DNA of 64,000 nucleotides from Spirochaetia bacterium (GCA_965203905.1 CBDBDQ010000003.1:1-64000), one strand, 5' to 3'. Shown: positions 45,257 to 64,000, numbered from the stretch's first letter. The notes: generated from the letters alone by a model not told the origin. Numbers and translations: made by a program.

Positions 45257-46054
45257 TCATTCACACCCCGGAATGCGGGCGGTCAAGTCGCAGCCGCGCA
45301 CGTGGGTCAGGTCCGCTTCCTCAAGGTCCGCCTCCCACAAGTTGGCGGCTTGCAGGTTCGCATCTGCCAACTTGGCATCGGCAAGCACAGCACCGCCGCT
45401 CAGGTTGGCGCCGGACAGGTCGGCGCCGGTCAGGTCCGCACCGGCCAGCTCCGCGCCGGACAGGTCGGCGCTAGTCAGGCTGGCACCGGCCAGATTGGCA
45501 CTGGTCAAGTCGGCGGTCCGGAGATTGGCGGCGTGCAGGTGTGCACCGAGCAGCTTGGCGGCGGGTAGGTCAGCAAAGGCCAGGATTGCGCCGCCCAGCA
45601 TTGCGCCGCGCAGGTCCGCTTCGGTCAGGTTCACGCCGAAAAGGAGCGTATAGGCGAGCTCGGCGCCGCGCAGGTCGGCGCTGGTCAGGTCGGCATGGGC
45701 TAGGGTTGCGGCGAACAGCTTGGCTTCGCGCAAGTTCGCGTTGGTCAGGTCAGCGCCGACCAGGGTTGCGCCGCGCAGGTTAGCGGCTTGCAGGTTAGCG
45801 CCGCGTAAGTTAGCACCGACCAGGGTTGCACCGATCAGGACAGCATTGCGCAGGTCGGCGCCGCGTAGGTCAGCCTCCCACAGCTGCGCACCGGCCAGCT
45901 CCGCGCCGGCGCAGTCCGGCATGCATTCCGGCAGGGCGCCTGCGTCAGCCGCGATCGCCGCTAGGAAGGCAATGGCGAGCAGGCGCAGGCGCGCGCATTG
46001 GTCGAGCGGTGGCGTTCGCTGGCGGGCGCACCAGCACGGCCCCGCCACCGTCAC
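45257..46054 (-). CDS. Secreted pentapeptide-repeat protein
   Basis: ~35 A(D/N)LxX repeats after a hydrophobic signal segment; start uncertain. Confidence 0.85.
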   Translation of the reverse strand: MTVAGPCWCARQRTPPLDQCARLRLLAIAFLAAIAADAGALPECMPDCAGAELAGAQLWEADLRGADLRNAVLIGATLVGANLRGANLQAANLRGATLVGADLTNANLREAKLFAATLAHADLTSADLRGAELAYTLLFGVNLTEADLRGAMLGGAILAFADLPAAKLLGAHLHAANLRTADLTSANLAGASLTSADLSGAELAGADLTGADLSGANLSGGAVLADAKLADANLQAANLWEADLEEADLTHVRGCDLTARIPGCE

Positions 46055-49365: not shown

Positions 49366-50059
49366 GTTGTATTCCACCAGCGACCCGGCATGAACCGAGA
49401 CGTGATGAACTACTCTCGTGGGCGTCATTGTATGCACAAGGTGCAGGCAGTCAACCAAACCTTGGGCCGTGAGATGCGGGAGATACGCAGCGGGCTGCCA
49501 GTCCTGGGGAGGCTTCGAGCGCTTCGCCTACGTCAGCGACCTGCGAACGCTGCAGGCTGAGTTAGCCGAGCTGAAGCGCGCTTCGGGCGAGTAGCGCCAG
49601 GGCGAGATTTGCTGGGCCGGTCCCACGGTGTTGGATAGATGCTGAGCCACCTCCAGCGACAGCCGTTCCGCCGGAGCGACAGGTAAACCGCCACGCCGGG
49701 CCCATGGCGCTGTTGTTGATTGAGAGTCCCCAATCGACCGACGGGACCGCGGAGGCCCGCGAGAAGAGCTGCGTTGCCGGTGCCGGCCGGTCGCTGCGCC
49801 TGCACCACGCTGGCGCCATCGTGCGTCACGGTGGGTACGTGACCCGTCGGGCCGGTCATCCTCGTGATTGTCCAGGGCGGCGCTCAGGAGACGACCGTCT
49901 ACGGCAAGCGCCACCGAGTGGTAAGCGACAAGCTGCTGATCAAGCTGCAGGCGGGCGAAGATACGGGTGCCATGGCCCTGATGCCGCGCGACGGTGAAAT
50001 GGCCCGGCTGGCGGAACGCCAGTCATGGGTCGACGCGGCGTGCCTGGAGGTTACCAGCA

Positions 50060-50776
50060 TCAGATAGCCCGCGCGCGGGCTTTCCTCAAAGGCAACGTCA
50101 CGGCGCCGCGCCGGTAGCCTTTCGGGACGCTCTCGATGGATGCCTGCAGCCGTACCCTAAGCGGCTCGGTGCTGCGCCAATCGAAGGGTGTCCCTTGATC
50201 GGTCACGAAGTCCGACATCGGGATTCTGAACCGATATCCCGCACGAAGACGCTCCAGGTAGCGCGGATACCGATAGCGCCCGTTTAGTACGATCCTGATG
50301 GAGAACCAGGCATAGCGGTCGCGGTTCGTGACGAGTAGGTTGCCTTGGCGATCAGTGGCCACTTCGGCGGTCAACGGCTTGGGAGTGCGGCGACGCCGGT
50401 AGACTCTCCGAACCAAGAAGCCGAGCCCCGCGCGAGGGTTCTTCGGGTCGAACATGACGTTCTGACTGCGGCTGTGCATGTGGTCAGGCCGCCCCTTGGA
50501 CACTTCCTTCAGGGCTTCACGATCCTGTTCGGAGATGGCTATCCACCGCTTGCCGTTCCACTGTTCCCACCCCCGGCCGAGGCCATCTGGCTCCAGGATA
50601 TCGCCGAGCGTGGGGACCAGCACATGCCATGTTCGGTGGCTATGCAGCGTCCCGACACTCGGACCGTAGCGACCGCTTACGGTGCGGAGCGAGATCCCGC
50701 GTACCAGGTCACCGTCGATCGCGGCGCGAGAGGGGTGAGAGCAGACCTTACAGCGGCGGGCCACTTCGGAAACCAT
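50060..50776 (-). CDS. Phage-type protein with N-terminal CxxC-HP/HTH domain
   Basis: RRCKVCSHPSRAAIDGDLVRGISLRTVSGRYG.S...L.SH...H, typical of small phage DNA-binding proteins. Confidence 0.55.
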   Translation of the reverse strand: MVSEVARRCKVCSHPSRAAIDGDLVRGISLRTVSGRYGPSVGTLHSHRTWHVLVPTLGDILEPDGLGRGWEQWNGKRWIAISEQDREALKEVSKGRPDHMHSRSQNVMFDPKNPRAGLGFLVRRVYRRRRTPKPLTAEVATDRQGNLLVTNRDRYAWFSIRIVLNGRYRYPRYLERLRAGYRFRIPMSDFVTDQGTPFDWRSTEPLRVRLQASIESVPKGYRRGAVTLPLRKARARAI

Positions 50777-50989
50777 AGTACCGCCCCTGGATCGACGCAC
50801 CAAGTGAGCGGTCCGATGCGCGTCAGTTTGAAACCAGAGCCTGGGTAGTAGCCCCCTCCATCGAGCGGCATCGCTCTTCCAGCGAGCGCCGTTGGCGACC
50901 AGCCTGAGGCGACCGAGACGCCGATCGTGGTGGCGAGGGATAGTCGTGCCCGTAAAGGCAGCACTCCCTGTCCCCGATATTCGAGGGAC

Positions 50990-51685
50990 ATGCTGTTTGA
51001 TGGGTTCGCTGGATGGGTCGCCAAGTGGTGGTGGTTGATTACTCTCGTTGTCGTTGTCGTCATCCTGCTCATCCCAGGGAAGCGTTCTCACCGGCAGAAG
51101 AAAAAAGGGCATTCGAGCGGCACAGGACCACAGCAGCGACGCGTGGGCTCGCGGTCATCTGGAGTGCAGCTCCGCCCCGCGCATCGGGGCGAGACACCCA
51201 CCTTCCCCGCGCACCGGGTCGATAGCCACACCATTCGCGCTCGCTGGGTAGAGGGCCCTACCCGTACGATCATGGGCAGAGCGTATGTGACGGACGGCGA
51301 CGGGATACGGGTCGCCAGAAAGGAAGTGCGCCTCGCCGGCCTTGACGCGCCCGAATGGGATCAGATGGCCAAACATCAGAACGGATACTGGTTCAACCAC
51401 GGGAAGCGCGTGAAGAGCGCGCTCATTCAGGAAATTGGCGGCAAGCATGTCAGTGTGACGGTCGAGAGCGTGGATAAGTTTGGGCGGCTAGTCGGCACTG
51501 TGACCTGCGAGGGCAGAGACATCGGTGAATGGATGGTGCGGGAAGGACTTGCCATCGCCGCCTACCATGACCGCTACAGGCAAGTCGAGCGGGGGGCGCG
51601 TGAAGCGAGGCGCGGCATGTGGGCACACGCCCACAACTTCGATCCCAGGGCGCACCGACACCGTGAGCGGCGAAGGATTGAGTAA
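50990..51685 (+). CDS. Thermonuclease (SNase-like) family protein with N-terminal TM helix
   Basis: VTDGDG, VRLAGLDAPE..Q, DKFGRLVG, MVREGLA, AREARRGMW. Confidence 0.92.
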   Translation: MLFDGFAGWVAKWWWLITLVVVVVILLIPGKRSHRQKKKGHSSGTGPQQRRVGSRSSGVQLRPAHRGETPTFPAHRVDSHTIRARWVEGPTRTIMGRAYVTDGDGIRVARKEVRLAGLDAPEWDQMAKHQNGYWFNHGKRVKSALIQEIGGKHVSVTVESVDKFGRLVGTVTCEGRDIGEWMVREGLAIAAYHDRYRQVERGAREARRGMWAHAHNFDPRAHRHRERRRIE

Positions 51686-51805
51686 CGTTTAGCTCGCCGC
51701 GTGACGTGCAGTGCCAACAGGGTGGATTCTCAGACTGACGCACTAACGGAGCGGTCTGCTCGTTCCACCGGCCTCTCGTCGTGTGATAGACTGGTGCTCC
51801 CTAAA

Positions 51806-52393
51806 ATGATGACTGTGACCGAACGCCGCAAGCGTGCTGAAATCATGTTGATCCAGCGAGTCATGTATAAGACGCCCTACCTGAAGCTTTGGCGGACGGC
51901 CTACCCCAAAACCAAATGCAACAACGAGAATAGCGCCGGCGAGATGGTCCGGCGCGAACTTCGAAAGCTTCCAGCTCTCCGCGCCGAGGAGAGAGCCGCG
52001 CGCCGTCTGCCACCCCCACCGCAGACCCCGGAGGATAGCGAACCTGAGGTGCCCAGCGAGCCAGCGCCGCCGCCGAAGATGAAGAAGTGTCTGGGAGTCG
52101 CCGGTAGGCAGTGCGATCAGGAAATCGTCGTGTTCCGGAATCGGAAGCGGTGCGCGAGCTGTGCGAAGGAGGTCCGGCGACTGCAGCAGCGCCCCCACAA
52201 ACGGAAGTACGGTCGAAATCACCGCGAGGAGCTGCGCACGAAGCGTCGCCAGCGGCGCAGATTTGACAGCTTTATGGAGGCGAGAAAGAAGGAGCGAGAG
52301 CGGGTCGCCGCCCTGCCGGAAGTAGTGTACGAGCCCGGTGGGAAGATCTTTGTGGTGAACCCAGATACGGGCCAGCGAGAACGCTTACGCTAG
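51806..52393 (+). CDS. Hypothetical basic protein (terminase-small-like HTH N-terminus, Cys cluster)
   Basis: LWRTAYPKTK...SAGEM..REL; C..C..CASC; Arg/Lys rich. Function is inference. Confidence 0.55.
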   Translation: MMTVTERRKRAEIMLIQRVMYKTPYLKLWRTAYPKTKCNNENSAGEMVRRELRKLPALRAEERAARRLPPPPQTPEDSEPEVPSEPAPPPKMKKCLGVAGRQCDQEIVVFRNRKRCASCAKEVRRLQQRPHKRKYGRNHREELRTKRRQRRRFDSFMEARKKERERVAALPEVVYEPGGKIFVVNPDTGQRERLR

Positions 52394-52432
52394 GATCGAT
52401 CCACGGATCTCTATTGGTATACCGACGATAGC

Positions 52433-52939
52433 ATGCCGAAAAGAAAGGCCGAAGAGACCATGACTGACAAGAAGCGCAAGTTCTTGGCCGAAGAGATTCT
52501 TGTCCTGATTGAGCAAGGTAAGACGAGGGCCGAGGCCTGGCGTCTCACCCACCCGGAATCCGATGCCAAGCCGGACAGCATGCGAGTCATGTGCAGCAAC
52601 CTGCTCGCGTGGTACAACAAGAAATATCCAACTGGGTACGAGCAGCTCATGCGGCGCCTGAGGGCACAAGAGAGACGTCGTAACCGACGACGCGTGAGGC
52701 CCCAAGAGAGTCATCACCAAGGCGGTCGACACGCACGCGATCAGGCGGCGGCGCCAATGCAGCCCGAGACTGATGAGGAGCGCCTTGAAGAACTGCTACT
52801 CGACAGGGAGCTAGAGGGGGATGAAGCACCCCCCTGGGTGGATGAAGAAATCGCCAAGCTGCGCGCTAAGGGGGTGCGCGCTCGCCAGCAGCGCGACCCA
52901 GATCCACCGCCAACAGACGAGGGTACCCGGGGCACCTAG
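52433..52939 (+). CDS. Hypothetical protein (terminase-small-like HTH N-terminus)
   Basis: KKRKFLAE......GKTRAEAWRLTHPESDAKPDSMRVMCSNLL; weakly similar to the previous ORF. Confidence 0.55.
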   Translation: MPKRKAEETMTDKKRKFLAEEILVLIEQGKTRAEAWRLTHPESDAKPDSMRVMCSNLLAWYNKKYPTGYEQLMRRLRAQERRRNRRRVRPQESHHQGGRHARDQAAAPMQPETDEERLEELLLDRELEGDEAPPWVDEEIAKLRAKGVRARQQRDPDPPPTDEGTRGT

Positions 52940-53712
52940 CCCAACCCCGCTTCACCTGCTGCTCGGGCGCTTCGCGCCACGGCACGGCACCGACGCTGAC
53001 GACGCAGGCTTCGATGATTCTGCGGGCCGGCGCCGGCTCCTCGGCTCGCCACGCCGGACCAGGCCGCAGCAGATCGCCGTCACCCCCCACAGAGCTGCCC
53101 TCACTGGCCCACAGGTCACCGCCCGGTGATCGCGGCGCGAGCCGGCGCCTTCTCACGAATTCTGAGCGTGTTCAGCAGGCTCAATCGTTCAAATAGGCCG
53201 ATGTCCTAGGTACAGTTAACGATTAGAGCGCAACGACGAAGGGGCCTAAACATATTACACTTAGATTATATATCGGTTACGTGATTTCATGCTGTCACGG
53301 AGAATAGTTGTGTTTCCACGATGAATCGGGCGATCTGCGCCGCAGTGTGCGCGCGCGTGGATGCGTGCGAGGTGCCGGCCGCTGGGCAGTCTTCCTCACC
53401 ACCCCCCTGGTGCAGATCACTGGTGATGCAGTTGCGCTGTCGTGCGGCATGGGCGATGCCCCGGGGCAGGGCTTTAGCCGTGGCGCCGCAGGCCCTACTA
53501 AAGGCCGGGGGTGCGGGGGGGGGCAGCCCCAGGCAGTGCACCTACGCCCTGAGTGACGAGTGCGCGTCCGCATTGAGGGTCTGCGCTTCGGATCGGGCAG
53601 GGTTACGTCCTCAGTGACAACTCTCCGCGCTCCAGCCTCCCGGGATAGCGCCGAGCGCAGCGGATTGGGGACGCGCCGTCTCCGAAGTTGCCGCTCGGAT
53701 CTAGAGCACCGC

Positions 53713-53869
53713 GGACACTTCGGACACTTCATTCCTACCCGTTTTGTTTTCTTTGTTTTGCCGTTTCTCGACACTAGAGGAAGTGTCTAAAGCGTCCCAA
53801 GTGTCTTATCGTTTTGTCCACAAGGACTTAGCTGCGGACACTTCCGAATTGAAGTGTCCTGAAGTGTCC
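53713..53869. promoter_or_regulatory. Iteron-like probable replication origin (GACACTT/AAGTGTC, ~8 copies in both orientations)
   Basis: GGACACTT at 53713, 53722, 53836; AAGTGTCY at 53781, 53799, 53852, 53862; T-rich spacer; directly downstream of the VapE gene. Confidence 0.7.
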
Positions 53870-53929
53870 AAGCGCGGTTGACGGGAGCGCAGCAGCCCTA
53901 TGCGGGCGTGGAGGCGCTCGCCGGCGCGG

Positions 53930-55312
53930 TCAGTCTGCGGTGGTGGTTGGTGGCCGCCGCCACCGTCTTGCGTTTCCGATCTTCGTCCGCTCGCAGCCGA
54001 GCTGCTGAAGGGCGCGTGTGACGCGCTTTCCCTTGACGGAGGTGGGCGGCGCTTCGGAATTGAAGCCGGCGGCCGCCATGGCCTCCTTCAGCGAAAACGG
54101 TGCGTGCTGCTTCACCAGCCAGTCGTTGAGCTTGTCCTCCAGCACTTCGTCGGCGTTGCGGTACCGTTCGGCTTGTTCGGCGGCAGCGCCGATCTCCAGC
54201 TCGAAGGGCATAACCGGCAAGATGCCCTTCTCGTAGCGTGTCCGAGCTTCCGCCCACAATTGACCGCGGTGGTCCGCAATCCAGTCACGCACGAAGCGCG
54301 CCGGCTGGCGCTTGCCATTGATGATCTTGGCTCCCAACTCCACCGGCGCGAAGCGGCGCAGGCCCGAGGGGTCGGACGGCAGGCACGAGCGGTCGTTGCT
54401 GGTCGCGGCCAGAGCAAAGCGGCGTGGCATGTGCTCGGGGTCGGATCGGTAAGTCAGCCGGATGCCGCATCATCGCGGCGTGAGAGATACGCTTTGATTT
54501 GCTCCAGGTCGGCCTTGGTGGAGCCGGTCATCTCCGATATTTCGACGATGACCCGGCCTTGCGTCGCTTCCACCCGTACCTTGTCGTCGGAGGTGAGGGA
54601 CAAACCGTCGCCGAACCACTCATCGCGATCTTCGGGCAGCAACACGCGCAGGAAAGTCGACTTGCCGATACCCTGGTCCCCGATCAGAATTGGCACCACG
54701 TCCTGCTGGTATCCTGGGCTCTTGCAGCGCCAAACCGCGGTGGTGAGCACGGCGCCCGAGGCCCACTTTACCACGGCTTGGTCTTGACCGGGGCGGACCT
54801 CGAACACGGTGTTGAGCAAAGTGTCCAGGCGCGGAACTCCGTCCCATGTGGGTAGGAGGAACAGCCAGCGCTCGAACGGATCTACCTCGCACTGGAAGCC
54901 GTACGCATCGATCACCTGTCCGCGTAGCGACATGGAGAAGCGCGCCGGTTTGTTAGGGGCAAAGTTGCAGGACTCGGCTATCTTCTCGAACAGGTAGGCG
55001 CGGCGGCGCGGGTTGGCTTCCTCCCAGACGGCTGGACCGGCGACACAAGTATCGAGGCAGATCTCGTACTTGCAGGAACGGACGTTGTATCGGATATCCG
55101 CGTTCAGTTCTGTCAGCGCGTGAATGAACCCTTCGGCGCTGACCGCGATGATCGGCTTCTGTCCGGCGGCCGTGTCCCCTCGTTTCGCTGGCGTGGAGCC
55201 GTTCTGCTGGCCGATGCTCGCCGGTGGCGCGGGGCGGTCGGTTGCGGCGGCCTGTCGGCGCCGGGTGGCGCCGGGTGGCGCCGTTTTCGGTTGGTCGTGG
55301 TGGTTGACGCAC
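53930..55312 (-). pseudogene. VapE-domain (virulence-associated E, helicase-like) replication protein, two frameshifts
   Basis: WDGVPRLD, PILIGDQGIGKSTF (Walker A), IVEISEM, IKAYLSRRDD/shift/IRLTY....MPRRFALAATSND..L..D.SG.RRF, QLWAEA. A 10-bp duplication near 55257-55283 separates the GTG start. Confidence 0.85.
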
Positions 55313-55615
55313 AGAACTCTCCCTTCCCCAAAAACGGATCTACTTCGGAGAAGGAGGTGAGCGGCAGCGCCAACAGAGGTGAAGCGCCTGCTACTAAGCG
55401 TATACAGCAGACGGGGCTCAGGTTGACCGCTCCAAGGAGCCGGAGCTAGACCACCAGCACGATACGACGCGCTATTGGTGCGGTGTTGCGGGTCTTACCC
55501 TCCCATGTAAGTCACGACAACATCGTGACCATTTCAGGTATTATTACAGGCAACACCTCGGACGTGTCAATGGGGAGGTCATTGCATGTGACCGGCTATT
55601 GGGGTATGAACTGAA

Positions 55616-55864
55616 GTGATGGAGAAGATTCCTAGAAACGAAGTGGTACGCGTACGCGCCATGGCTTACCGCCGCGGCATCCGCTTGGTAGCGTCCCGCA
55701 CGCGTGATCCGGGGGCCGCGGATTACGGCTGTTGGGCTATGCATGACGCTCGCACCGGCGAGTTGCTGCACGCCCCTGGCCCGATCAGCCCCTACGCTTT
55801 GTCCTGGGATCAAGTGAACGAAGCGCTACGAGTTGGCGTCGGCCAGGTGCTTGCAGCGTCGTGA
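55616..55864 (+). CDS. Small phage-type hypothetical protein
   Basis: RVRAMAYRRGIRLVASRTRDP.A.DYG.W.M.D motif pattern seen in small phage proteins. Confidence 0.6.
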   Translation: MMEKIPRNEVVRVRAMAYRRGIRLVASRTRDPGAADYGCWAMHDARTGELLHAPGPISPYALSWDQVNEALRVGVGQVLAAS

Positions 55865-56146
55865 TGTCGGCCAGCGCGGCATAGCAGCAGCCCCCATAAC
55901 CACCGGCTGGGGTGACGCGCCGCGGCGCCATCGGATGCACTCACGACGATCAGGGCTCCCACGGTCTCGTTTCCTCCGGGTGCTCTGGTCGCTGGTACCC
56001 TTGGGCAGTCCTGGAAGCGTCACCGGGCGCCGTCTCTTTCAGCCGCAGATCAGCCGCTCTTGGCCCTCAGCGTTGCTTGCAGCGCGGAAGTGGTGGTTAT
56101 TTGGCCGCCTGCGAGCGTTCCTGGCCGTCCTGAGCAAGGCTGCGGC

Positions 56147-56189
56147 AAAAAAAGAGCCGCTCCACCTGGGCGCTCAAGGTGGAGCGGCT
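56147..56189 (-). terminator. Rho-independent terminator of the minus-strand operon
   Basis: 13-bp perfect stem AGCCGCTCCACCT/AGGTGGAGCGGCT followed by CTTTTTTT on the minus strand. Confidence 0.85.
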
Positions 56190-56278
56190 GGCTTGGGAGG
56201 GATCAGGACAGTCGAATCGGCGCCGCGCCTTGGTTCAGCGTACGGTTGTGACCAGGACCACGGCAAGCCGCCCGGCAC

Positions 56279-57343
56279 TCAACCAGGTGCAGGCGGCGGA
56301 TCGGTGCGCCCGGGCGGCTCGGGGTCGGACTCGTCCCGCGAATCCGCGGGCTTGGCCGGCACCAGCATCGGCGGCGGTATATACGGCACGTGCAGCAGCT
56401 CGGCGGCCCGACGCTTCGCTTCCTCGGGGCGGCGGTCGTAAATTTGTGTGGTCGAGACGTTGGAATGCCCCGCGAGCTTCTGCACGGCGCTGATGTCCGC
56501 GCCGGCGTCGAGTAGCTCGCCGACGAAGCTGCGGCGCAGATCGTGTGGCGAGAAGCGGGTGATGCCGGCTTGGTCGGCGAGGTAGCGCAGGCGAACCAGC
56601 ACCGCCTGGGCGGTCATGCGCCGGTGCCGAATCTTTCCTCCCTTGGCGACCGGACACAGCAGCGCCCCCGGCCAGATACCGCGGCGGGCCAGCCAAGCGT
56701 CGATCGCGGCGCGACCACCCGTCGGGGGATAGACGATGCGATCCTTCCGTCCCTTACCTGAGCGCACCGTGACCGCGCCGGCATCGTAATCGGCAAGTTC
56801 CAGGGCGACGACCTCGCTGCGGCGCAACCCACACCCGTACAGCAGGCCGAGCATGGCCGCATCGCGGGCGCCTACCGGGGTGTCGTTTCTGCTGCAGGTG
56901 TCGAACAGGCGGCGCATGTCGCCGGCGTCGACGTGGCGGCCCGCCGGTAGGGTGCTCGCCGCCACGCTCTTGATAGCGACCACGCGCATCATCGTGTCGG
57001 CGTCGATCAGCCCGAGGTTGAAAGCCTCCTTGATGACGCCGCGCAGGGCCGAGAGCATGTGATTGATGGAGGCGGGCTTGGTGTCCTCGTCGATCAGCCG
57101 GGCCCGTAACGCCATGATGTGCTGATAGCGCAACTCGGTCCAGTCCACGGCCAGCGCATCGGTGGTGATGCCGCCGGTGAGGATCATGGCAGCGCGGTTG
57201 AGCGCGTGCTGCAGGCCGCGGCGACCGACCGAGGACGCCTTGGCGGCGAGGTAGACGGCGGCCGGGTTGCGGTCGAGGGGTCCCGGCGCGGTGACGGGCA
57301 CCGGCGGGCTGGCGGGCGGATCGGGGCGGTCGGTGGTGCTCAT
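56279..57343 (-). CDS. Tyrosine recombinase (XerC/D-like integrase)
   Basis: RDAAMLGLLYGCGLRRSE, GKGRKDR, PHDLRRSF, LAGHSNVSTTQIYDRR; AGGAGG RBS. Confidence 0.95.
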   Translation of the reverse strand: MSTTDRPDPPASPPVPVTAPGPLDRNPAAVYLAAKASSVGRRGLQHALNRAAMILTGGITTDALAVDWTELRYQHIMALRARLIDEDTKPASINHMLSALRGVIKEAFNLGLIDADTMMRVVAIKSVAASTLPAGRHVDAGDMRRLFDTCSRNDTPVGARDAAMLGLLYGCGLRRSEVVALELADYDAGAVTVRSGKGRKDRIVYPPTGGRAAIDAWLARRGIWPGALLCPVAKGGKIRHRRMTAQAVLVRLRYLADQAGITRFSPHDLRRSFVGELLDAGADISAVQKLAGHSNVSTTQIYDRRPEEAKRRAAELLHVPYIPPPMLVPAKPADSRDESDPEPPGRTDPPPAPG

Positions 57344-57394
57344 GCACTGTTCCTCCTGTGTAGTGAATTGCGGCGCCCGGTTAGGGCGCAGGTA

Positions 57395-57463
57395 GGGCGA
57401 GAGGACAGGGCTCGAACCTGCCGCGGATCTTGACCCGCTTCTCCAGCCAGAATCACTCTCGCC
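57395..57463 (-). ncRNA. tRNA-like cloverleaf element A (non-canonical)
   Basis: GGCGAGAG/CTCTCGCC 8-bp acceptor, TTCT-GGCTGG-AGAA D-like arm, GCGGG-TCAAGA-TCCGC arm with 6-nt loop, GGCAGG-TTCGAGC-CCTGTC T arm; no variable loop, no CCA. Confidence 0.7.
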
Positions 57464-57478
57464 AAGGTGGGACCGCTG

Positions 57479-57784
57479 CTACCGCAGCGCGCGGTCCCAG
57501 CGCCGCGCTGCGATGCGGGCGCGCTGCAAGCTGCGCCAGCCGCAGCCGTAGGTGCGGTGCCAGCGGCGGCGCGCGAAGTAGCCGCAGCCCAGGATGGGCG
57601 GTGCCGGCGCCGTCCCCCTTCCCCTGGCGACGCGATCCCGGAGGATCGTCCTCCAGCCGTCAAACTCGCGCCAACGCAGGCGCGTGACGTCGCGGGCCAT
57701 CACCTGCATCAGCACAGCCGCGTAGGCGGCCGTGGCGGCCACCAGCAGCGCCGGCGGCGCTGACCAGATCAGATCAATCAGCAC
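57479..57784 (-). CDS. Hypothetical membrane-anchored protein
   Basis: AGGAGG + GTG; N-terminal hydrophobic helix. Confidence 0.6.
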   Translation of the reverse strand: MLIDLIWSAPPALLVAATAAYAAVLMQVMARDVTRLRWREFDGWRTILRDRVARGRGTAPAPPILGCGYFARRRWHRTYGCGWRSLQRARIAARRWDRALR

Positions 57785-57873
57785 GGGCGACCTCCTGCCG
57801 GCCCGGTCGGCCCCGGAAGGGGACAGGCGGTAACGGGCGCCCGTGGCAGGCGCCCGTGGTAGGGTGGTGTAGG

Positions 57874-57984
57874 TCACCCGTCGCCTTGCGGGCGAGTATG
57901 CAGCCGCACCAGGAAGCGCACGGCGACCCACACCAGGAGGGCGGCAGCCGCGCAGGCCGCCGCCCCCAGGAACAACTCCGCCAC
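57874..57984 (-). CDS. 36-aa single-TM peptide
   Basis: MAELFLGAAACAAAALLVWVAVRFLVRLHTRPQGDG, starting 3 nt after the upstream stop. Confidence 0.45.
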   Translation of the reverse strand: MAELFLGAAACAAAALLVWVAVRFLVRLHTRPQGDG

Positions 57985-57987
57985 CGG

Positions 57988-58464
57988 CTACTTCGCGTCC
58001 AGCGCCGCCGCCTCCCAGCCCTCCGGGAGCTGCTGGGTCTCGGGGCCGCGCTCCCACACCAGCGGCGACGCGTCGGCCGCGGCCGCGGCGATGGCCTCGG
58101 CGAAGTGGGCGTCGATGTCGACGTGCACCGGCAGCGCAACGGCGTCCGAAGCCGCCAGATCCAGCCCCAGGTCCTCGGACGCCGCGTCCCAGGCGGGAGG
58201 ATCGACGAACGGCACCACCAACTCGGCCGCGTAGCCGTAGCCGAGGAAGGTGTAAGCGTCGCGCGGCAGGCCGACCGGCCCGTCACTGACGGTGACGAAT
58301 GCGACGTCGGCCGGTGCTGCGTAGAGGGCGGCGAGCGGGTCGCCGTTCCCCGGCGCCGGCGCGGCGTCCGACGTGGCCGGCGCGGTCTCGTTGCCGGTGC
58401 AACCCATGACGATGATCGCCACCAGGGCGATCACGATGATCGGTACTCCAAGCTGCTTCACCAT
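57988..58464 (-). CDS. Putative lipoprotein
   Basis: AAGGAG RBS; MVKQLGVPIIVIALVAIIVMG|C lipobox. Confidence 0.7.
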   Translation of the reverse strand: MVKQLGVPIIVIALVAIIVMGCTGNETAPATSDAAPAPGNGDPLAALYAAPADVAFVTVSDGPVGLPRDAYTFLGYGYAAELVVPFVDPPAWDAASEDLGLDLAASDAVALPVHVDIDAHFAEAIAAAAADASPLVWERGPETQQLPEGWEAAALDAK

Positions 58465-58493
58465 GGAGAGCTCCTTGGCCGCAGTAGCGGCTA

Positions 58494-58541
58494 CGGACGT
58501 GCGGCAGGAATCGAACCTGCGCATACCCAACCCGGCGTCCG
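58494..58541 (-). ncRNA. tRNA-like element B (closing stem + GG-containing linker + perfect T arm)
   Basis: CGGACG/CGTCCG closing stem and GCAGG-TTCGATT-CCTGC canonical T arm. Confidence 0.6.
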
Positions 58542-58665
58542 GACACAGACAGGGCGCCCCCGGTGTCGAGGGCGCCCTGTAGGCGCGTCGTGCGGTGTGT
58601 GTGGTAGGTTGCCGGCGGTCCGCCGGCGCGGTGTCAGCTCGGTTCCGCTTCCAGGTAGCGGCGCC

Positions 58666-58929
58666 TCAGCCCCGCAGCTCGCGCAGGCGGAACACGCCGT
58701 CGGCGTTGATCCGCCCCCGGTCCGCTGCCTCGGCGTAGTGAAGCTCGCCATCGCTGGCGAGAACCTGCAGCGGGTAGCCGGGGGGCGATGTCAGCGGCGC
58801 GAAGCGCGGGTTGCGCTGCGCATAGCCGGCGGGGTAGCTGGCGGTTTCCAGGTCGCCGGCGTGGTAGACCAGGCGGAAGACGGCGACCTTGCCATCGTTG
58901 GTGCGCCACAGTGCCTCGCAATCGCTCAT
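58666..58929 (-). CDS. Hypothetical protein
   Basis: MSDCEALWRTNDG...; ATGA overlap with the upstream gene. Confidence 0.6.
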   Translation of the reverse strand: MSDCEALWRTNDGKVAVFRLVYHAGDLETASYPAGYAQRNPRFAPLTSPPGYPLQVLASDGELHYAEAADRGRINADGVFRLRELRG

Positions 58930-59126
58930 GGGCAGCCCCGTAGCGCCAGCGCGGCGGCGTAGCCGTCCAGGTAGGCGTGTGCCTCGGCCGCGGTGCCGTG
59001 GAAAAGCCACTGACCGCCCCGAAAGACGGTGTAGCCGGCGATCCCTGCGCCGGCGCCGTGTGGCTCGACCTCGACCCGCAAACCGAGCTTCGCGGCCCGG
59101 TCGGCCAACGTCATGGTGCGGGTCAT
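58926..59126 (-). CDS. Hypothetical protein
   Basis: MTRTMTLADRAAKLGLRVEV...; ATGA overlaps on both sides. Confidence 0.6.
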   Translation of the reverse strand: MTRTMTLADRAAKLGLRVEVEPHGAGAGIAGYTVFRGGQWLFHGTAAEAHAYLDGYAAALALRGCP

Positions 59127-59332
59127 TCTCGATGCTCCGGCGGCGGCGCGCGCTCGTAGGCCTCGACGACCTCGAACGCGCAGTCCCTCACGTGGTCGTT
59201 GCCCGCGTCCTCGTCGAACACAGCGGCACGCAGGTTTTTGATGGCGGTGTGCAGCTCGCGCTCGACGCGCTTGTTCTCGCGGCGCTCCTGGCGCTCCTGG
59301 CGCCGGCGTTGCGATCCTTCGCGATTTCGCAT
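59123..59332 (-). CDS. Hypothetical protein
   Basis: AGGAGG RBS, 69 aa. Confidence 0.6.
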   Translation of the reverse strand: MRNREGSQRRRQERQERRENKRVERELHTAIKNLRAAVFDEDAGNDHVRDCAFEVVEAYERAPPPEHRE

Positions 59333-59435
59333 AGGGTTGGTCCTCCTGTCCTCTGCGGCTCGACTTGGATGGAAACGGCCGGCCGCAGAGACGGGGGACG
59401 ACGGGCTGGGGACAACCCGCCATCCCCTTGTGGAT

Positions 59436-59813
59436 CTAGGTGGCTGCGGCTGCCGGTTCCGCGTCGCGGGACCGGTGCCGTACCGGCTGGAACTCCACCT
59501 GCTCGGCGACGATCACGACCTTGGACCGCGCGTTGCCGTGCGGGTCGTCCCAGCGCTCTTGCTTGAGGCGCCCGACCACGCGGATGCCGCGCCCCTTGGC
59601 GAGGTGCTCGTGGCACACTTCGGCGAGCTTGCCCCACGTGGTGGTCTCGATGAACGAGACTTCCTCGGTGCGCTCGCCCTGGCGTTCCGGGTCTCTGTAG
59701 GAGCGGTTGCTAGCCAGCACCAGCGTGCACGTCGGCGTGCCCTTCGGCGTGTAGCGCAGCTCAGGCTCGCGGCACAGATTGCCCTCGATCAAAACACTGT
59801 TGAGGTTATTCAA
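59436..59813 (-). CDS. ssb: Single-stranded DNA-binding protein (short, no acidic DDDIPF tail)
   Basis: NSVLIEGNLCREPELRYTPKG...WGKLAE....L.KG..I.V.GRLKQERW; AGGAGG + TTG start. Confidence 0.93.
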   Translation of the reverse strand: MNNLNSVLIEGNLCREPELRYTPKGTPTCTLVLASNRSYRDPERQGERTEEVSFIETTTWGKLAEVCHEHLAKGRGIRVVGRLKQERWDDPHGNARSKVVIVAEQVEFQPVRHRSRDAEPAAAAT

Positions 59814-59829
59814 CGTGATAACCCTCCTG

Positions 59830-59903
59830 TGGCCATGGCTCATTCAGGCACCGGGCGGCCAATCCCGGCACGATACGGGCCAGCTACGGCCCGTATTTCG
59901 CCA
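59830..59903 (-). ncRNA. Type II hammerhead ribozyme (candidate) with loop I-3' tail pseudoknot
   Basis: UGGC-GAAA, 9-bp stem III ending AUC, 8-bp stem I (GUGCCGGG/CCCGGUGC), core CUGAAUGA, GCCA closing stem II; loop UGGCCG pairs with tail UGGCCA. Confidence 0.85.
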
Positions 59904-60182
59904 CTATTCGGCGATGGCTCCCGTGACCCAGCCGCGCGCGGTGTCGAGCGCAGCAGGCACGGTGCGGTGAGATTCGGTGCGGCAGTCGCCGCCGTCCTCG
60001 CGCAGCAGCAGCACGCTGTACGGCCGGCCGTGGCGCCCCATCAGGGACAGGGAACTGCGCCACACCACGGCGCGCCGGTTGCCCTGGCGGTAGACCAGGA
60101 CCCGGCGCGGCGCGCGGGTGAAGCGCGCAGGCTCGCGGGAGAGTTGCAGGCGCAGGCCGTCGCGGATGGCGACCTTTATCAG
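59904..60182 (-). CDS. Hypothetical protein
   Basis: Open frame coupled to the upstream stop; start codon uncertain. Confidence 0.45.
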   Translation of the reverse strand: MIKVAIRDGLRLQLSREPARFTRAPRRVLVYRQGNRRAVVWRSSLSLMGRHGRPYSVLLLREDGGDCRTESHRTVPAALDTARGWVTGAIAE

Positions 60183-60595
60183 GCTGCCTCCGGCTGCCGC
60201 AGCAGCGCGCCGGCGCGGCGCAGCCGCTCGGTCACGGTCGTCGGCCCGATCTCCGCGTGGTCGTTCCATGAGGCAATCGCGCTCATCGGCAGCGTGCCGG
60301 GGTCGAAGAAATCCGGATGCGTCTCCAGGATCGCGTCGACCATCGCGCGCTGCGCGGTCTCGGTGATGGTTCCCAGCAGTTGCGGGGGCGCGCTGCGCCG
60401 CGCCGCGACGTGGATCGCGCCGGAAGCGCACCAGCACACCGCGTCGCCGCTGGTCGGTGCGCAGGGCACGTTGTCGGCGCCGCGCGCCGTGGAGAAGCGG
60501 CACCACCCGGTCTCGATGTACCGGGCGGCGCCGTCCAGGACCTCCGCTGCCGCGGCACGGATGGTCTGAGGCTGCGGTTGCGCCACCACCACCAT
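60179..60595 (-). CDS. DUF6197-like phage protein
   Basis: VLDGAARYIETGWC...A.......AVCWCASGAI....I.SWND......V...LRRA. Confidence 0.7.
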   Translation of the reverse strand: MVVVAQPQPQTIRAAAAEVLDGAARYIETGWCRFSTARGADNVPCAPTSGDAVCWCASGAIHVAARRSAPPQLLGTITETAQRAMVDAILETHPDFFDPGTLPMSAIASWNDHAEIGPTTVTERLRRAGALLRQPEAA

Positions 60596-61041
60596 CAGGC
60601 AGCGCTCCGGGCCACGTAGTCGCCGAGCGGGTAGTCGGTGACCGCCGGCCTGCCGCTGCGCAGCCGGATCAGCTCCCGCAGGTGCCGGCGGATGTCGGTC
60701 TCCAGTTGGAAGCGGGCCAAGACCCACTGTCCAGCCGCAGCCTCCCAGTTGGCGCTGCCGGTGGGCTTGGCCCGCAGCCGCGCCTGCGCCTCGCAGCGCC
60801 GGAAGTAGGTCACGGTCTCCCGGTCCGCCTTCAGCGTCCGCTCGACCATGGTGACCAAGCTCGGCAGCGTGCCGTAGGCGGCGACGCCACGGGCGCAGCC
60901 GCGCTCGACCCGGCTGCCGTCGTGCATGGTCCACACGGTGCTGTAGGTGCGATCCTCGACCGTGACGGCCGCGGCGCGCAGTCGCGCCATGCGCTCGGCG
61001 TCGTCCAGGTCCTGCCTGATGAAGCGTTGTGCAGCGGTCAT
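60595..61041 (-). CDS. Hypothetical protein
   Basis: GGAGG RBS, TGATG coupling to the next gene. Confidence 0.7.
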   Translation of the reverse strand: MTAAQRFIRQDLDDAERMARLRAAAVTVEDRTYSTVWTMHDGSRVERGCARGVAAYGTLPSLVTMVERTLKADRETVTYFRRCEAQARLRAKPTGSANWEAAAGQWVLARFQLETDIRRHLRELIRLRSGRPAVTDYPLGDYVARSAA

Positions 61042-61092
61042 TCAGGTTCCCTCCAGAATTGCCCCGGCGCCCTGTAGCGCCTGCGAGCTTCG

Positions 61093-61139
61093 GCCGGCAA
61101 GGGTGGGGTTGAACCACGCTCAACGCTGGTCCCGCCGGC
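61093..61139 (-). ncRNA. tRNA-like element C (acceptor-like stem + T arm)
   Basis: GCCGGCGGG/CTTGCCGGC stem and GTGG-TTCAACC-CCAC T-loop hairpin, beginning 7 nt after a stop codon. Confidence 0.5.
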
Positions 61140-61146
61140 TCCAGTT

Positions 61147-61371
61147 TCACGAAGCTGCCTCGCTGTCGGCCGGCACTTCCCCGCGCCAGCCCCATGCCTC
61201 AGCCACGTCCAGCGCCAAGCCCCCGGCGCCCCGCTCCGCGTACCATGCGACCTCGCCGTCCTGCTTGGCGTAGATCGCCCAGTAGATCGAGGCGACCGAT
61301 GAGCGCGTTTCCTCCCGCCGGATGACCAGCGTCTCGCGCCCGTTCTGTCCGTGGATCAACTCCCCTGCCAT
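61147..61371 (-). CDS. Hypothetical protein
   Basis: 74-aa ORF abutting the radC stop. Confidence 0.6.
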   Translation of the reverse strand: MAGELIHGQNGRETLVIRREETRSSVASIYWAIYAKQDGEVAWYAERGAGGLALDVAEAWGWRGEVPADSEAAS

Positions 61372-61869
61372 TCAGCCCTCCCAGCCGATGCCGCGCTGCC
61401 GCAGGCTCACAAAGCCGCGCCGCGCGACGATCACGTGGTCGTACAGGTCGATGTCGTGGTACTCCGCTGCCGTCCTCACCTTCCGCGTCACCCGCGTATC
61501 AGACCCGCTCGGGCACGGGTCGCCCGAGGGGTGGTTGTGCACCACGATGAAGTAGGGCGCGCCCCTCACGATGGCAGGGCGCAGGATCTCCGCGACCCGG
61601 ATCGAGGCGGCGTTGACCGTGCCCTGGTAGACCGTCACGGCCTCCAGCAGCTCCGACTTGGTGTTCAGCAGCAGCACGCGAAGCTGCTCCTGCAACAAGC
61701 CGCCCATGTCCATGCACTGGTTCGCCACGGCCTCCGGCGTGTTCAGCACGGGGGGATCACCAGCGGCGCCGCCACGGCCCGGAGGGGTGGCGGCGCCGTA
61801 CTGCAAGGCGATCTCCTGGAGCAACTGTTGGTTGCGCTTCAGCGCGTCCAGCAGATCCGTCATCAGCAC
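61372..61869 (-). CDS. radC: RadC-like JAB domain protein
   Basis: QEQLRVLLLNTK, GTVNAA....EILR.A, VHNHPSGDPCPSGSD, DLYDHVIV. Confidence 0.93.
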   Translation of the reverse strand: MLMTDLLDALKRNQQLLQEIALQYGAATPPGRGGAAGDPPVLNTPEAVANQCMDMGGLLQEQLRVLLLNTKSELLEAVTVYQGTVNAASIRVAEILRPAIVRGAPYFIVVHNHPSGDPCPSGSDTRVTRKVRTAAEYHDIDLYDHVIVARRGFVSLRQRGIGWEG

Positions 61870-62273
61870 GCCTCCGTGAGCGGCTTCAGCGTCCGCGCGG
61901 CGCGGATCAGCGTGTCCTTCACGGTCGCCTGCCGCTGGCCGTCCAGGTCGTTCCAGTACGCAATCACCCCGCCCCGATCCTCCGTCAGGCCGGTGGTCTC
62001 ACGGATCAGCTTCTCCAGAACGGCACACGCGGCCCGCCTGACTGCGGTCTCATCGCCGCCGCTCAGCTTCAGCAGCCCCACGCGGTAGCTGGCGATCAGC
62101 AGGGCGCCCGTCGCGCACCAGCAGCACGCATCCGGCGCGGTAGGCGACACCGGGACACCGGCGCCGTTCTGCGCTGCCGCTCCCTGCGTCCATCCGATGC
62201 CCACAAAGCAGGCGGCGCGCTCCAGGAGCGCCGCCGCCTTGTCGTTGACCTCCAGGTTGGTCAGTACCCGCAT
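61863..62273 (-). CDS. DUF6197-like phage protein (paralog of 60179..60595)
   Basis: LLERAA....GWTQGAAA......ACCWCATGAL....IAYWND..G.....V...L.RAA. Confidence 0.72.
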   Translation of the reverse strand: MRVLTNLEVNDKAAALLERAACFVGIGWTQGAAAQNGAGVPVSPTAPDACCWCATGALLIASYRVGLLKLSGGDETAVRRAACAVLEKLIRETTGLTEDRGGVIAYWNDLDGQRQATVKDTLIRAARTLKPLTEAC

Positions 62274-63418
62274 CAGTCCAGGGCCTCGCTCGGCAGCCGG
62301 ATGTCGTAGCACTCGTCGGCGTTCATGCACCCGCCGTCGGTCATGTGGACCGTGCCCTCGACGCCGATCCGCTCCACGGTCCGCCATCGGCCGTCGCTCG
62401 GATCGCGCACCCGGTCACCCACGTGCACGGGATACTCGTCCTCATCCTCAACGACCTCGGCAGGCGGGTCGTACACGTCCGGTTGCTCGGTGTGCCCCGG
62501 CCACTCGGCAGCGTGCGTCCACCGGTCGGCAGCCGTCTCAGCATCGGTGTGGTTGGGAAACCGCTTGGTGTGGCGCCGCTCTGGCAGGCGATGCCGGTCC
62601 AGCACGTAAGCCTCGACCGTGTAGGTGCGCTCCACCATCGCCGGCGACAGGCGCCGCTCAGCGGTCGCGAGCGTGGCGTTGCGCCCGTTGATCCACTCAT
62701 CCGATACCCAGCGCACACGGCGCGTAGGAGCGCGCTCTGGCGGCTCGCATTCGCAGGTCGGGCACGGCGGATCGTCCTCCCCGTGGTCGACGTGATAGAG
62801 GCAGACCGCGATGTCGTGCTTGGCCTCCGTGGCGTCGCAGCGGCACAGCGCGCAGCGTTGCGGGTGGTCGGGCAGCAACTCGTTGCCGGTGAAGGTGTCG
62901 ACCGTCACGTCGCCGGTGGCGTCGATCCGATACAGGCCATCCTCATCGCCGTGTGCGCGCCGGTAGTCCTGCGCCGCCTCCACGCGGTCCTTCTCGTCCT
63001 TGAACGGCCCGCTCAGGACCGGCTCCACGTCGCCCATGATCGACAGCAGGTGCAGCTTCCGGTCCGGGGAGCGGGGCAGGTCCCGCAACTCGCTCAGAAG
63101 CTGGCGCCCGTCCTCAAGCTGCTCGTCGTCGGCGCAGTACAGCGTCACCATGTGCGCAAGCTGCTGCACCACGCGGTGGCACTCCTGCTCGGTTGCGATG
63201 GCCTGCGCCGCCCGTAGCACGTCGATGTCGCGGATGGTGGGGTCGAGCATCAGGTCGCGCTCGCGCGCCGCCTGCGCCTCCCGGGCCTCGGCCTGCTCCT
63301 GCAGCACCGCGTTGAGCGCGGCGCGGAGTGTCTCTGCCTCGCCCCGATCCACCAGGATCGACACGTTCGGCATGTTCAGGTTGACCCGCCCGTTGGCGTG
63401 TAGCGTCGCCGTCGCCAT
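62273..63418 (-). CDS. Multi-domain hypothetical protein with Cys/His zinc-binding segment
   Basis: MATATLHANG...; CALCRC...C..H...CPTC; TGATG coupling at both ends. Confidence 0.7.
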   Translation of the reverse strand: MATATLHANGRVNLNMPNVSILVDRGEAETLRAALNAVLQEQAEAREAQAARERDLMLDPTIRDIDVLRAAQAIATEQECHRVVQQLAHMVTLYCADDEQLEDGRQLLSELRDLPRSPDRKLHLLSIMGDVEPVLSGPFKDEKDRVEAAQDYRRAHGDEDGLYRIDATGDVTVDTFTGNELLPDHPQRCALCRCDATEAKHDIAVCLYHVDHGEDDPPCPTCECEPPERAPTRRVRWVSDEWINGRNATLATAERRLSPAMVERTYTVEAYVLDRHRLPERRHTKRFPNHTDAETAADRWTHAAEWPGHTEQPDVYDPPAEVVEDEDEYPVHVGDRVRDPSDGRWRTVERIGVEGTVHMTDGGCMNADECYDIRLPSEALD

Positions 63419-63675
63419 CACGAACGCCCCTCGGCCACGCAACCGGCACACCGACCGTCTGTGGTCGGTGTCGCCATCGTGGCCTCGCACACGTAGCACA
63501 CGTGGTCGTGAACCACGTCGTCGACGTCGTTCGCCACCGGCCCGTAGCCCATCTCTTGCAGCAGGTCGCGAGCGTTGCGCAGCACGTCGAGCCGCTCCTG
63601 CACCGATGGTGGAGGCTGCCGGTCAGCAGCCTCCACCATCACTCGCAGGGTCTCTTTGTCGGTAGGTCCGATCAC
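63418..63675 (-). CDS. Hypothetical protein with CxxC..CxxC
   Basis: CYVC...CAGC; GTGA overlap. Confidence 0.65.
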   Translation of the reverse strand: MIGPTDKETLRVMVEAADRQPPPSVQERLDVLRNARDLLQEMGYGPVANDVDDVVHDHVCYVCEATMATPTTDGRCAGCVAEGRS

Positions 63676-63980
63676 AGCCCGACGACCTCGAACAGGCCAA
63701 GCTCCTGAAGCTCAAGGCCGGCCTGTACCCATGCCTCGCTGTCCGCGGCGCGGCTGCCGGCGTCGTCCTCTTCGCTCAGCGCCGGCAGCTCCATCGCCAT
63801 GGAAGCGCCCCACGGCCTCTCTTCGACGATCTCAAGCGCGCTGCCGGCGGCGATCGGCGTGCTGCCGTCGTCCCCGCGCAGGCACCATGAATCGAGCGCT
63901 CGCGTGGCCGTGACAACGTTTCCGGCTTCGAGGCGCCCGTCCACGTCGCCGGGTTCGACCCAAACAGTTCTACCGTTCAT
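63672..63980 (-). CDS. Hypothetical protein
   Basis: AGGAGG RBS; acidic 102-aa ORF. Confidence 0.65.
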   Translation of the reverse strand: MNGRTVWVEPGDVDGRLEAGNVVTATRALDSWCLRGDDGSTPIAAGSALEIVEERPWGASMAMELPALSEEDDAGSRAADSEAWVQAGLELQELGLFEVVGL

Positions 63981-64000
63981 CGGTATCCCTCCTGCTCCCG

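Follow-up and report, generated by a model that had tools for sequence, protein, structure and literature searches.

A predicted type II hammerhead ribozyme with an additional core adenosine at a gene boundary of a putative mobile element in a Spirochaetia bacterium

We analysed a stretch of 64,000 nucleotides (the window) from a Spirochaetia bacterium. It represents the first 64 kb of contig C3 (106,776 bp) in a genome of five contigs and about 8 Mb. Near its end, the minus strand presents a tight row of genes composed of a DUF6197-like gene, RadC, small ORFs, a second DUF6197-like gene, a 91-codon ORF, the ribozyme motif described here, ssb and further small ORFs. The genes to which we refer below are the following.

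56282-57343: tyrosine integrase (Pfam/PHROG annotation)
59436..59813, minus strand: ssb, 125 aa, TTG start at 59813 (Pfam PF00436, E 8.9e-30; PHROG 44)
59904..60179, minus strand: 91-codon ORF, upstream of the ribozyme in each of the four copies in the genome
60182-60601 and 61866-62387, minus strand: DUF6197-like genes, assigned to the same operon as RadC
61375-61869, minus strand: RadC, assigned to an operon with the two DUF6197-like genes

About 17 kb of this region (roughly 48000-65100) is common to a second copy on contig C5, at 1.92-1.94 Mb. This shared stretch, together with the integrase context, points to a prophage-like or integrative mobile element present in several copies. The integrase, VapE-like, RadC, DUF6197 and SSB genes around the motif make up a mobile-element setting, which is typical of type II hammerheads. 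No promoter-like site was found in 57300-64000, and no terminator-like site was found at the ribozyme, the single one (60328-60313) being inside a coding region. This absence weakly favours one long transcript, as far as it can be read from the sequence.

Several other features of the region were recorded. The DUF6197-like gene at 60182-60601 matches PHROG 762 only and shows a frame overlap with a long spurious ORF (60179-61195). The VapE-like domain is split over 53933-54430 and 54457-54933 (minus strand), which correspond to profile positions 137-203 and 5-125, and this gene looks frameshifted or otherwise broken. Three large ORFs, collagen-repeat/LapA-like (46448-49222, minus strand), pentapeptide-repeat (45260-46054, minus strand) and SNase-like (50927-51682, plus strand), fall in the part of the window common to the second chromosomal copy. 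A weak tRNA-Sec-like Rfam match (57397-57462, minus strand; 26.5 bits for a threshold of 47) adjoins the tyrosine integrase. ARAGORN predicts no tRNA within 50000-64000, and the match may stem from a tRNA fragment in an attachment site.

The minus strand from 59903 to 59830 exhibits a type II hammerhead architecture, with every base as an earlier note on this DNA had described it. With the flanking signals, the order is UAG, UGGC, GAAA, UACGGGCC, GUAGCU, GGCCCGUAU, C, GUGCCGGG, AUUGGCCG, CCCGGUGC, CUGAAUGA, GCCA, UGGCCA, C and AGGAGG. The parts, all on the minus strand, are assigned as follows.

59906-59904, minus strand: TAG stop codon of the 91-codon ORF, from the sequence
59903-59900, minus strand: stem II 5' strand UGGC, pairing with GCCA 59839-59836; this open stem makes the motif type II
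59899-59896, minus strand: core G12 A13 A14 and A15.1 (GAAA), from the sequence and the Rfam alignment
59896-59873, minus strand: stem III hairpin, 9 bp, AUACGGGCC/GGCCCGUAU, loop GUAGCU (RNAfold, -15.9 kcal/mol)
59872, minus strand: C17, position deduced from the hammerhead architecture; predicted scissile bond 59872/59871
59871-59848, minus strand: stem I hairpin, 8 bp, GUGCCGGG/CCCGGUGC, loop AUUGGCCG (RNAfold, -12.8 kcal/mol)
59847-59840, minus strand: core strand C3 U4 G5 A6 A6a U7 G8 A9, CUGAAUGA; the extra A is 59843 or 59844
59839-59836, minus strand: stem II 3' strand GCCA, from the sequence, RNAfold and the covariance model
59835-59830, minus strand: 3' tail UGGCCA, complementary to UGGCCG of loop I (59861-59856)
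59829, minus strand: single C between the tail and the Shine-Dalgarno sequence
59828-59823, minus strand: ssb Shine-Dalgarno sequence AGGAGG, 1 nt past the pseudoknot tail and 9 nt ahead of the TTG

The minimum free energy structure calculated with RNAfold (-38.1 kcal/mol, z = -1.95) includes each of the three stems, with stem II open and stems I and III closed by loops, i.e. the type II topology. The three stems, the GAAA, the AUC triplet and the pseudoknot between loop I and the 3' tail, as listed in the earlier note, are all present at the locus, and this topology, core and pseudoknot agree with the bacterial and phage type II architecture published by Perreault et al. 2011 (PMC3088659). 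The claimed boundaries were correct on one side: the tail does end 1 nt before the Shine-Dalgarno sequence, but the motif begins at the base immediately following the TAG, with zero gap instead of the 1 nt that had been proposed. The nucleotides C3 U4 G5 A6, G8 A9 and G12 A13 A14, the A15.1-U16.1 pair and H17 (a C) are all present in each of the four genomic copies, that of the window included. The core strand, however, is CUGAAUGA, of 8 nt, and departs in its spacing from the canonical 7-nt CUGANGA. By its architecture and descent, as judged from sequence comparison, the motif is assigned to the type II hammerheads, with an insertion at position A6a (core CUGA-A-UGA).

The window was scanned against Rfam and gave no match at gathering level. 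The type II hammerhead model RF02276 (Hammerhead_II), which the earlier note had suggested as a check, does find the motif, with a score of 19.1 bits that remains under the gathering score of 37 (E 0.093 for 171 nt searched, 6.5 for 12 kb). The alignment to this model shows an insert column within CUGA.UGA, together with mismatches where the model extends stem I, and the low score results from both. Among the copies in the same genome, RF02276 scores range from 19.1 to 28.7 bits, the C4 paralog having 28.7, while a related sequence from Kitasatospora, described below, reaches 36.9. The latter is the top score, every A6a sequence scored being below 37 bits; none of the other 14 A6a sequences scored was listed at E ≤ 0.01 for RF02276. 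The threshold of 37 is a curated cut-off and not a biological feature, and Rfam by itself is insufficient to call the window motif. At a permissive Rfam E-value, no second ribozyme was found near it in 52000-64000.

The motif is found at four places in the genome.

C3, 59903: the window copy
C5, about 4,773,330: copy with 86 nt identical to the window copy
C5, about 1,929,030: third copy
C4, about 6,477: fourth copy

A homologous 91-codon ORF lies upstream in all four copies, with 86-91% protein identity, and ssb lies downstream in three of them, the C4 copy continuing with a different sequence. Among the 74 ribozyme columns, 8 are variable, and despite this variation CUGAAUGA is kept in 4/4 copies, so the core is retained by the genomic homologs, as the earlier note had expected of a genuine motif. 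Six of the variable columns are located in loop III, in loop I or at the final position of the tail. Of the other two, one replaces a C-G pair by U-G and one disrupts the pair that closes the loop of stem III. Zero changes are seen in the core, in stem I and in stem II. In the upstream ORF, 43 of 273 DNA columns are variable, 22 of these at third codon positions, which indicates that it is a real gene and that the region is not merely too young to have changed. The 91-aa protein gave no Pfam or PHROG match and had no relatives in the collection of genome contigs. A search of the plasmid collection with the DNA of 59400-60600 gave no match. In the same way, when 200 relatives were searched with 286 nt of DNA (ORF end and ribozyme), no homolog was accepted outside the own genome, where only short matches of 27-48 nt were seen (E 9e-5 to 9e-4).

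In the C4 copy (about 6555-6563; about 1580 in locus L001), homology stops directly past the ribozyme and the Shine-Dalgarno sequence, and unrelated sequence stands in place of ssb. With this break, the ribozyme marks the boundary of a module or a recombination boundary. The same locus gave a weak RAGATH-28 match (L001:1451-1509, plus strand; 21.2 bits for a threshold of 45.3), which extends from the 3' end of the upstream ORF into the first ribozyme bases and is probably driven by the common GGCGAA word.

The earlier note had left open whether the additional core nucleotide was a natural variant or an indel error. The second explanation is ruled out, since the insertion, one A between A6 and N7, is kept in four of four copies that differ at 8 other motif columns, and it also recurs in 14 foreign CUGAAUGA sequences, which speaks for the natural variant. 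Contigs of one public DNA run contained the paralog variants and no indel at 59843/59844; as this run may be the source sample itself, it is not counted as independent evidence.

The foreign sequences were obtained by scanning three collections with a pattern in which stem II, GAAA and CUGAAUGA were fixed and the 33-63 nt between them were left free. A match passed the subsequent filter when its free part could fold into two hairpins, the first of them closed by an A-U pair, with a nucleotide other than G in between. The pattern fixes 18 nt (GGCGAAA and CUGAAUGAGCC) derived from the window, the conservation of which is no evidence; the independent evidence from the foreign A6a sequences is limited to the stems, C17 and the pseudoknot. 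Among genome contigs, one of 35 pattern matches passes, in Kitasatospora (locus L045); the other 34, for an expectation by chance of about 33 estimated beforehand by the author, reach -8.5 kcal/mol at best, compared with -28.7 kcal/mol for the free part of the window motif. Ten of 28 matches pass in viral contigs, with values from -16.5 to -26.1 kcal/mol, and three of 49 in metagenome contigs. Stems I and III of the passing foreign sequences are unrelated in sequence to one another, as are their pseudoknots, and they compensate nevertheless. Position 17 is a C in all 17 A6a sequences parsed.

The identity of the inserted base was then compared in the viral contigs. With CUGA-A-U-GA, the full architecture is present in the 10 of 28 matches given above; with C, G or U replacing the inserted A (N7 = U), it is present in none of 79. 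With the A kept and N7 = C, at least three sequences pass among the 28 CUGAAC matches listed, one of which has a stem I of the same family as two CUGAAUGA sequences. One CUGAAAGA match also passes the hairpin filter but is doubtful in appearance. In these scans, therefore, A alone is seen as the inserted base, next to U or C at N7. Canonical CUGAUGA cores combined with the same stem II are much commoner, with at least 142 stretches, and 69 of the 92 matches examined pass. The A6a form is recurrent and A-specific and apparently under selection, and the recurrence of an A-specific insertion along with full covariation of stems and pseudoknot argues that the variant is functional.

A separate class of matches was noted in viral loci L414-L492, where 57 of 79 matches to GGCGAAA...CTGATTGAGCC have a CTGATT core and fail the hairpin test. 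Many of the loci listed belong to isolate-derived viral contigs and share a match length of 56 nt. The class is probably conserved coding sequence and not ribozymes.

A covariance model (R1) was built from nine foreign A6a sequences only. On the 64-kb window it gave a single match, 59905-59824, with 45.6 bits and E 4.7e-10, and on the 8-Mb genome it matched exactly four places, which are the four copies. This result is partly circular, as the seeds carry the 18 fixed window nucleotides, the stems being the independent contribution. We also aligned 23 hammerheads under guidance of a covariance model, 17 with A6a and 6 with normal-length cores from the same loci or related genomes; this alignment was used in place of one by MAFFT, which misaligned sequences with long and short stem III. 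In total, 95.1% of the cells are in standard pairs and both sides change in 15 of 17 pairs, against 30-46% paired when the partner was slid by 1-3 columns, and none of 500 shuffles attained the observed values; being fitted to the model, the alignment somewhat favours structure. Helix 1 (stem II) is paired in 100% of cells and A15.1-U16.1 is A-U in 23/23 sequences, and changes on both sides occur in 6 of 7 modelled pairs of stem III and in 7 of 7 of stem I.

The pseudoknot between loop I and the 3' tail comprises 6 bp in the window, 5 Watson-Crick and 1 G-U (UGGCCG/UGGCCA). The corresponding pair is UGGGCU/AGCCCA in Kitasatospora, and UGAGA/UCUCA, UGAGAGA/UCUUUCA, CGGCCC/GGGCCG, GCGCCC/GGGCGC, GACCA/UGGUC, UGACU/AGUCA and UGGCU/AGCCA in others, i.e. 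the words differ between sequences while the complementarity stays. The summed Watson-Crick helix length over 15 sequences, leaving out the near-duplicates L067 and L089, is 70, compared to 50.1 ± 3.2 in tail shuffles, and 0 of 2000 shuffles reach 70. The window pseudoknot taken alone has a P of about 0.06 and is not individually significant. At least 5 bp form between loop I and its own tail in 82% of cases and with other tails in 42%, a comparison that carries no information because many sequences share pseudoknot words. Such a pseudoknot, usually of 4 or more bp, is found in most type II hammerheads (PMC3088659).

Covariance-model searches gave no element in any of ten genomes of the same genus, while three related genomes (same family, order and class) have type II hammerheads with normal cores above the Rfam threshold, two of them with twister or twister-sister ribozymes close by. 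Foreign A6a loci occur on viral contigs, and some A6a elements adjoin a twister ribozyme or hammerheads at the Rfam threshold. At the Kitasatospora locus, three type II hammerheads, two of them above the Rfam threshold, flank small ORFs within 1.1 kb. The ribozymes at these loci are listed below.

L045:1499-1570, plus strand: hammerhead with A6a core, Rfam 36.9 bits
L045:1812-1883, plus strand: hammerhead with CUGACGAUGCC, an extra U ahead of stem II, 41.2 bits
L045:2519-2586, plus strand: hammerhead with canonical core, 39.6 bits
L072:1909-1966 (plus strand), L096:2604-2661 (minus strand) and L097:2788-2860 (plus strand): twister-P5 (55.8 and 49.2 bits) and twister-sister (48 bits) ribozymes, at most about 1.3 kb from hammerheads

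A 258-aa frame upstream in L045 matches PHROG 2563 (function unknown). In viral locus L072, the gene downstream of the A6a hammerhead is bracketed by this hammerhead and the twister-P5. The hammerhead of the genome from the same order (L097:1501-1572, plus strand; 42.2 bits) has the core CCGAAGA, with a C at the U4 position, and lies 7 nt upstream of a DUF2958 gene.

We mapped the flanking frames of 12 A6a loci (15 with the three normal-core relatives). The nearest upstream frame ends within about 20 nt in 11 of the 12, the exception being L083 with 76 nt, and the nearest long downstream frame starts within 30 nt in 10 of the 12, the exceptions being L045 with 91 nt and L083 with 49 nt. Proven ribozymes occupy positions of the same kind. 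A Shine-Dalgarno-like run is visible after the ribozyme in several foreign loci. By Pfam and PHROG, the genes flanking the foreign A6a ribozymes belong mostly to no family and have no identity in common, and no SSB was found among the downstream ORFs scanned. Taken with the C4 copy, this rules out ssb as a conserved partner gene, and the association of the ribozyme, as far as gene positions indicate, is with gene boundaries generally and not with ssb.

In the window, the pseudoknot abuts the ribosome binding site and might, as the earlier note proposed, couple folding to translation. Among relatives, the distance from the pseudoknot to the Shine-Dalgarno sequence varies from about 1 to about 20 nt. 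The 1-nt spacing is therefore not a conserved feature, and this variability would argue against a precise, conserved coupling.

Considering the architecture, the paralogs, the covariation and the gene context, we regard the motif as likely to be a self-cleaving type II hammerhead with an A6a insertion, which would cut the operon transcript after C59872. Three other explanations were weighed against it. The first is a decayed hammerhead, in which A6a has killed catalysis and what is left is a passive structured spacer, a stabiliser of the mRNA end or a sequence with no function. The low activity reported in PMC3088659 for an insertion after A6 and the sub-threshold Rfam scores are consistent with this relic, but the variant of 2011 was slow and not dead. 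Furthermore, a dead copy should drift, whereas the A-specific insertion is present in 17 sequences or more in which stems and pseudoknots have been completely replaced and are still paired, the inserted base is never C, G or U (0/79), N7 varies between U and C alongside it as in active cores, and the paralogs are unchanged in core, stem I and stem II. We consider decay unlikely.

In the second, the likeness to a hammerhead is superficial and the structure serves protein-dependent processing or regulation, e.g. as a target of RNase III or E, of a phage or host protein, or as a translational operator of ssb. Two strong hairpins and a pseudoknot adjoining the Shine-Dalgarno sequence would suit such a role, and any structured RNA could in principle have covarying stems. 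This explanation nevertheless leaves unaccounted for the core nucleotides, the A15.1-U16.1 pair and the C17 at the junction in all copies and relatives, and the sister elements, in related genomes and at the same Kitasatospora locus, are hammerheads above the Rfam threshold; we judge it highly improbable. Finally, a chance match of a short and simple motif in GC-rich DNA has a negligible probability: non-hammerhead matches to the pattern are indeed frequent (34/35 in genome contigs, 46/49 in metagenome contigs, 18/28 in viral contigs) and the Rfam E-value is poor, but the -28.7 kcal/mol of the motif is far beyond chance matches, it fits exactly from the stop codon to the ribosome binding site as in relatives, and chance is effectively refuted by the single R1 match in the window and four in the genome, the covariation, and the structure-respecting substitutions of the four conserved paralogs.

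For the self-cleaving hammerhead, the following course can be proposed. The ribozyme would be transcribed inside a long minus-strand polycistronic mRNA comprising the DUF6197-like genes, RadC, small ORFs, ssb and more. Upon folding of the three-way junction and of the loop I/3'-tail pseudoknot, the 2'-OH of C17 would attack the adjacent phosphate, with the cut falling between 59872 and 59871. The piece upstream of the cut, with the 91-codon ORF, would then carry the stem III hairpin and a 2',3'-cyclic phosphate at its end, and the ssb mRNA would start with a 5'-OH and the 8-bp stem I hairpin, followed by the remaining 6-bp pseudoknot, if it persists, and the Shine-Dalgarno sequence. As the products would be joined by the 4-bp stem II alone after the cut, they should separate.

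Such a cut would uncouple the stability and translation of the ssb mRNA from the upstream genes. A 5'-OH and a 5' hairpin would both slow 5'-end-dependent decay in bacteria; the ssb mRNA could therefore outlast the upstream genes, or be translated independently of them. The A6a insertion probably makes cleavage slower than in canonical hammerheads, and processing may thus be partial or condition-dependent. A ribosome terminating at the abutting UAG or initiating at the ribosome binding site would sit on part of the ribozyme, so that translation likely competes with folding.

A more speculative proposal, which we hold to be possible but doubtful, is that the A6a hammerheads form a selected sub-class and are not damaged copies: the extra A, inherited as A although stems, pseudoknot and N7 change, would gate or slow cleavage, making it dependent on a stop codon and ribosome binding site free of ribosomes. 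If this were true, gated cleavage would set the ratio of ssb to the upstream products when the mobile element enters or is induced, and gated ribozymes below threshold would be systematically absent from genome annotation. The A6a form is in any case a blind spot of threshold-based Rfam annotation, the four copies and all the others scored going unreported, and it offers a natural test case for the tolerance of the hammerhead core to a backbone insertion and for the question whether slow ribozymes tune operon expression.

Since 2011 it has been known that type II hammerheads occupy gene boundaries in prophage-like elements, and the window motif is in this respect an ordinary find. According to PMC3088659, type II hammerheads flank single genes or short blocks in prophage regions, and polycistronic RNAs of about 2 kb were cleaved in vitro, with cleavage in E. 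coli as well for Agrobacterium tumefaciens. In vivo cleavage has been shown by cyPhyRNA-seq for three type II hammerheads of D. vulgaris (PMC8782182). The window motif resembles the RF02276 type II hammerheads (PMC3088659) in the capped stems I and III and open stem II, in GAAA...CUGA.GA, A15.1-U16.1 and C17, as well as in the loop I/tail pseudoknot and the tightly packed gene setting of a mobile element. It differs from RF02276 by the extra A between A6 and N7, with its 19.1 bits for a threshold of 37, and both its stem III, of 9 bp, and its stem II, of 4 bp, exceed the consensus length.

A position at gene boundaries is also shared with the clustered hammerheads that flank ardA in A. tumefaciens and with the arrays of Azorhizobium caulinodans and Clostridium scindens. 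These belong to accessory or early operons of integrated elements and were proposed to cut polycistronic RNA into gene-length mRNAs (PMC3088659). In contrast to them, only one ribozyme was found per copy of the mobile element, no ardA was detected, and ssb is downstream in three of the four copies. HHphage of the haloviruses HF1/HF2 (PMC3088659) is likewise a core-insertion variant; the start of an early replication gene follows it within a few nucleotides, and a transcript 5' end was mapped at its cleavage site. The insertion of HHphage, however, is near C3 and stem I (2a, 2b) and not after A6, and this hammerhead is archaeal and dependent on high salt (PMC3088659).

Also among the closest known systems is the natural insertion after A6 reported in PMC3088659 (Figure 5, Figure S6), where it was named A6a and has the same insertion site and a phage or mobile-element setting. 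Its activity was low but detectable, and the explanation offered was that the insertion perturbs the contact of U4 with the phosphate that joins A6 to N7. The hammerhead class as published therefore tolerates this insertion. Judged by the entries listed, a full-text literature search found no other hammerhead-ribozyme paper on A6a hammerheads. The insertion itself is therefore already known since 2011, and what is added here is its recurrence as a group, with four sequences in the own genome, one in Kitasatospora, ten plus three in viral contigs and three in metagenomes.
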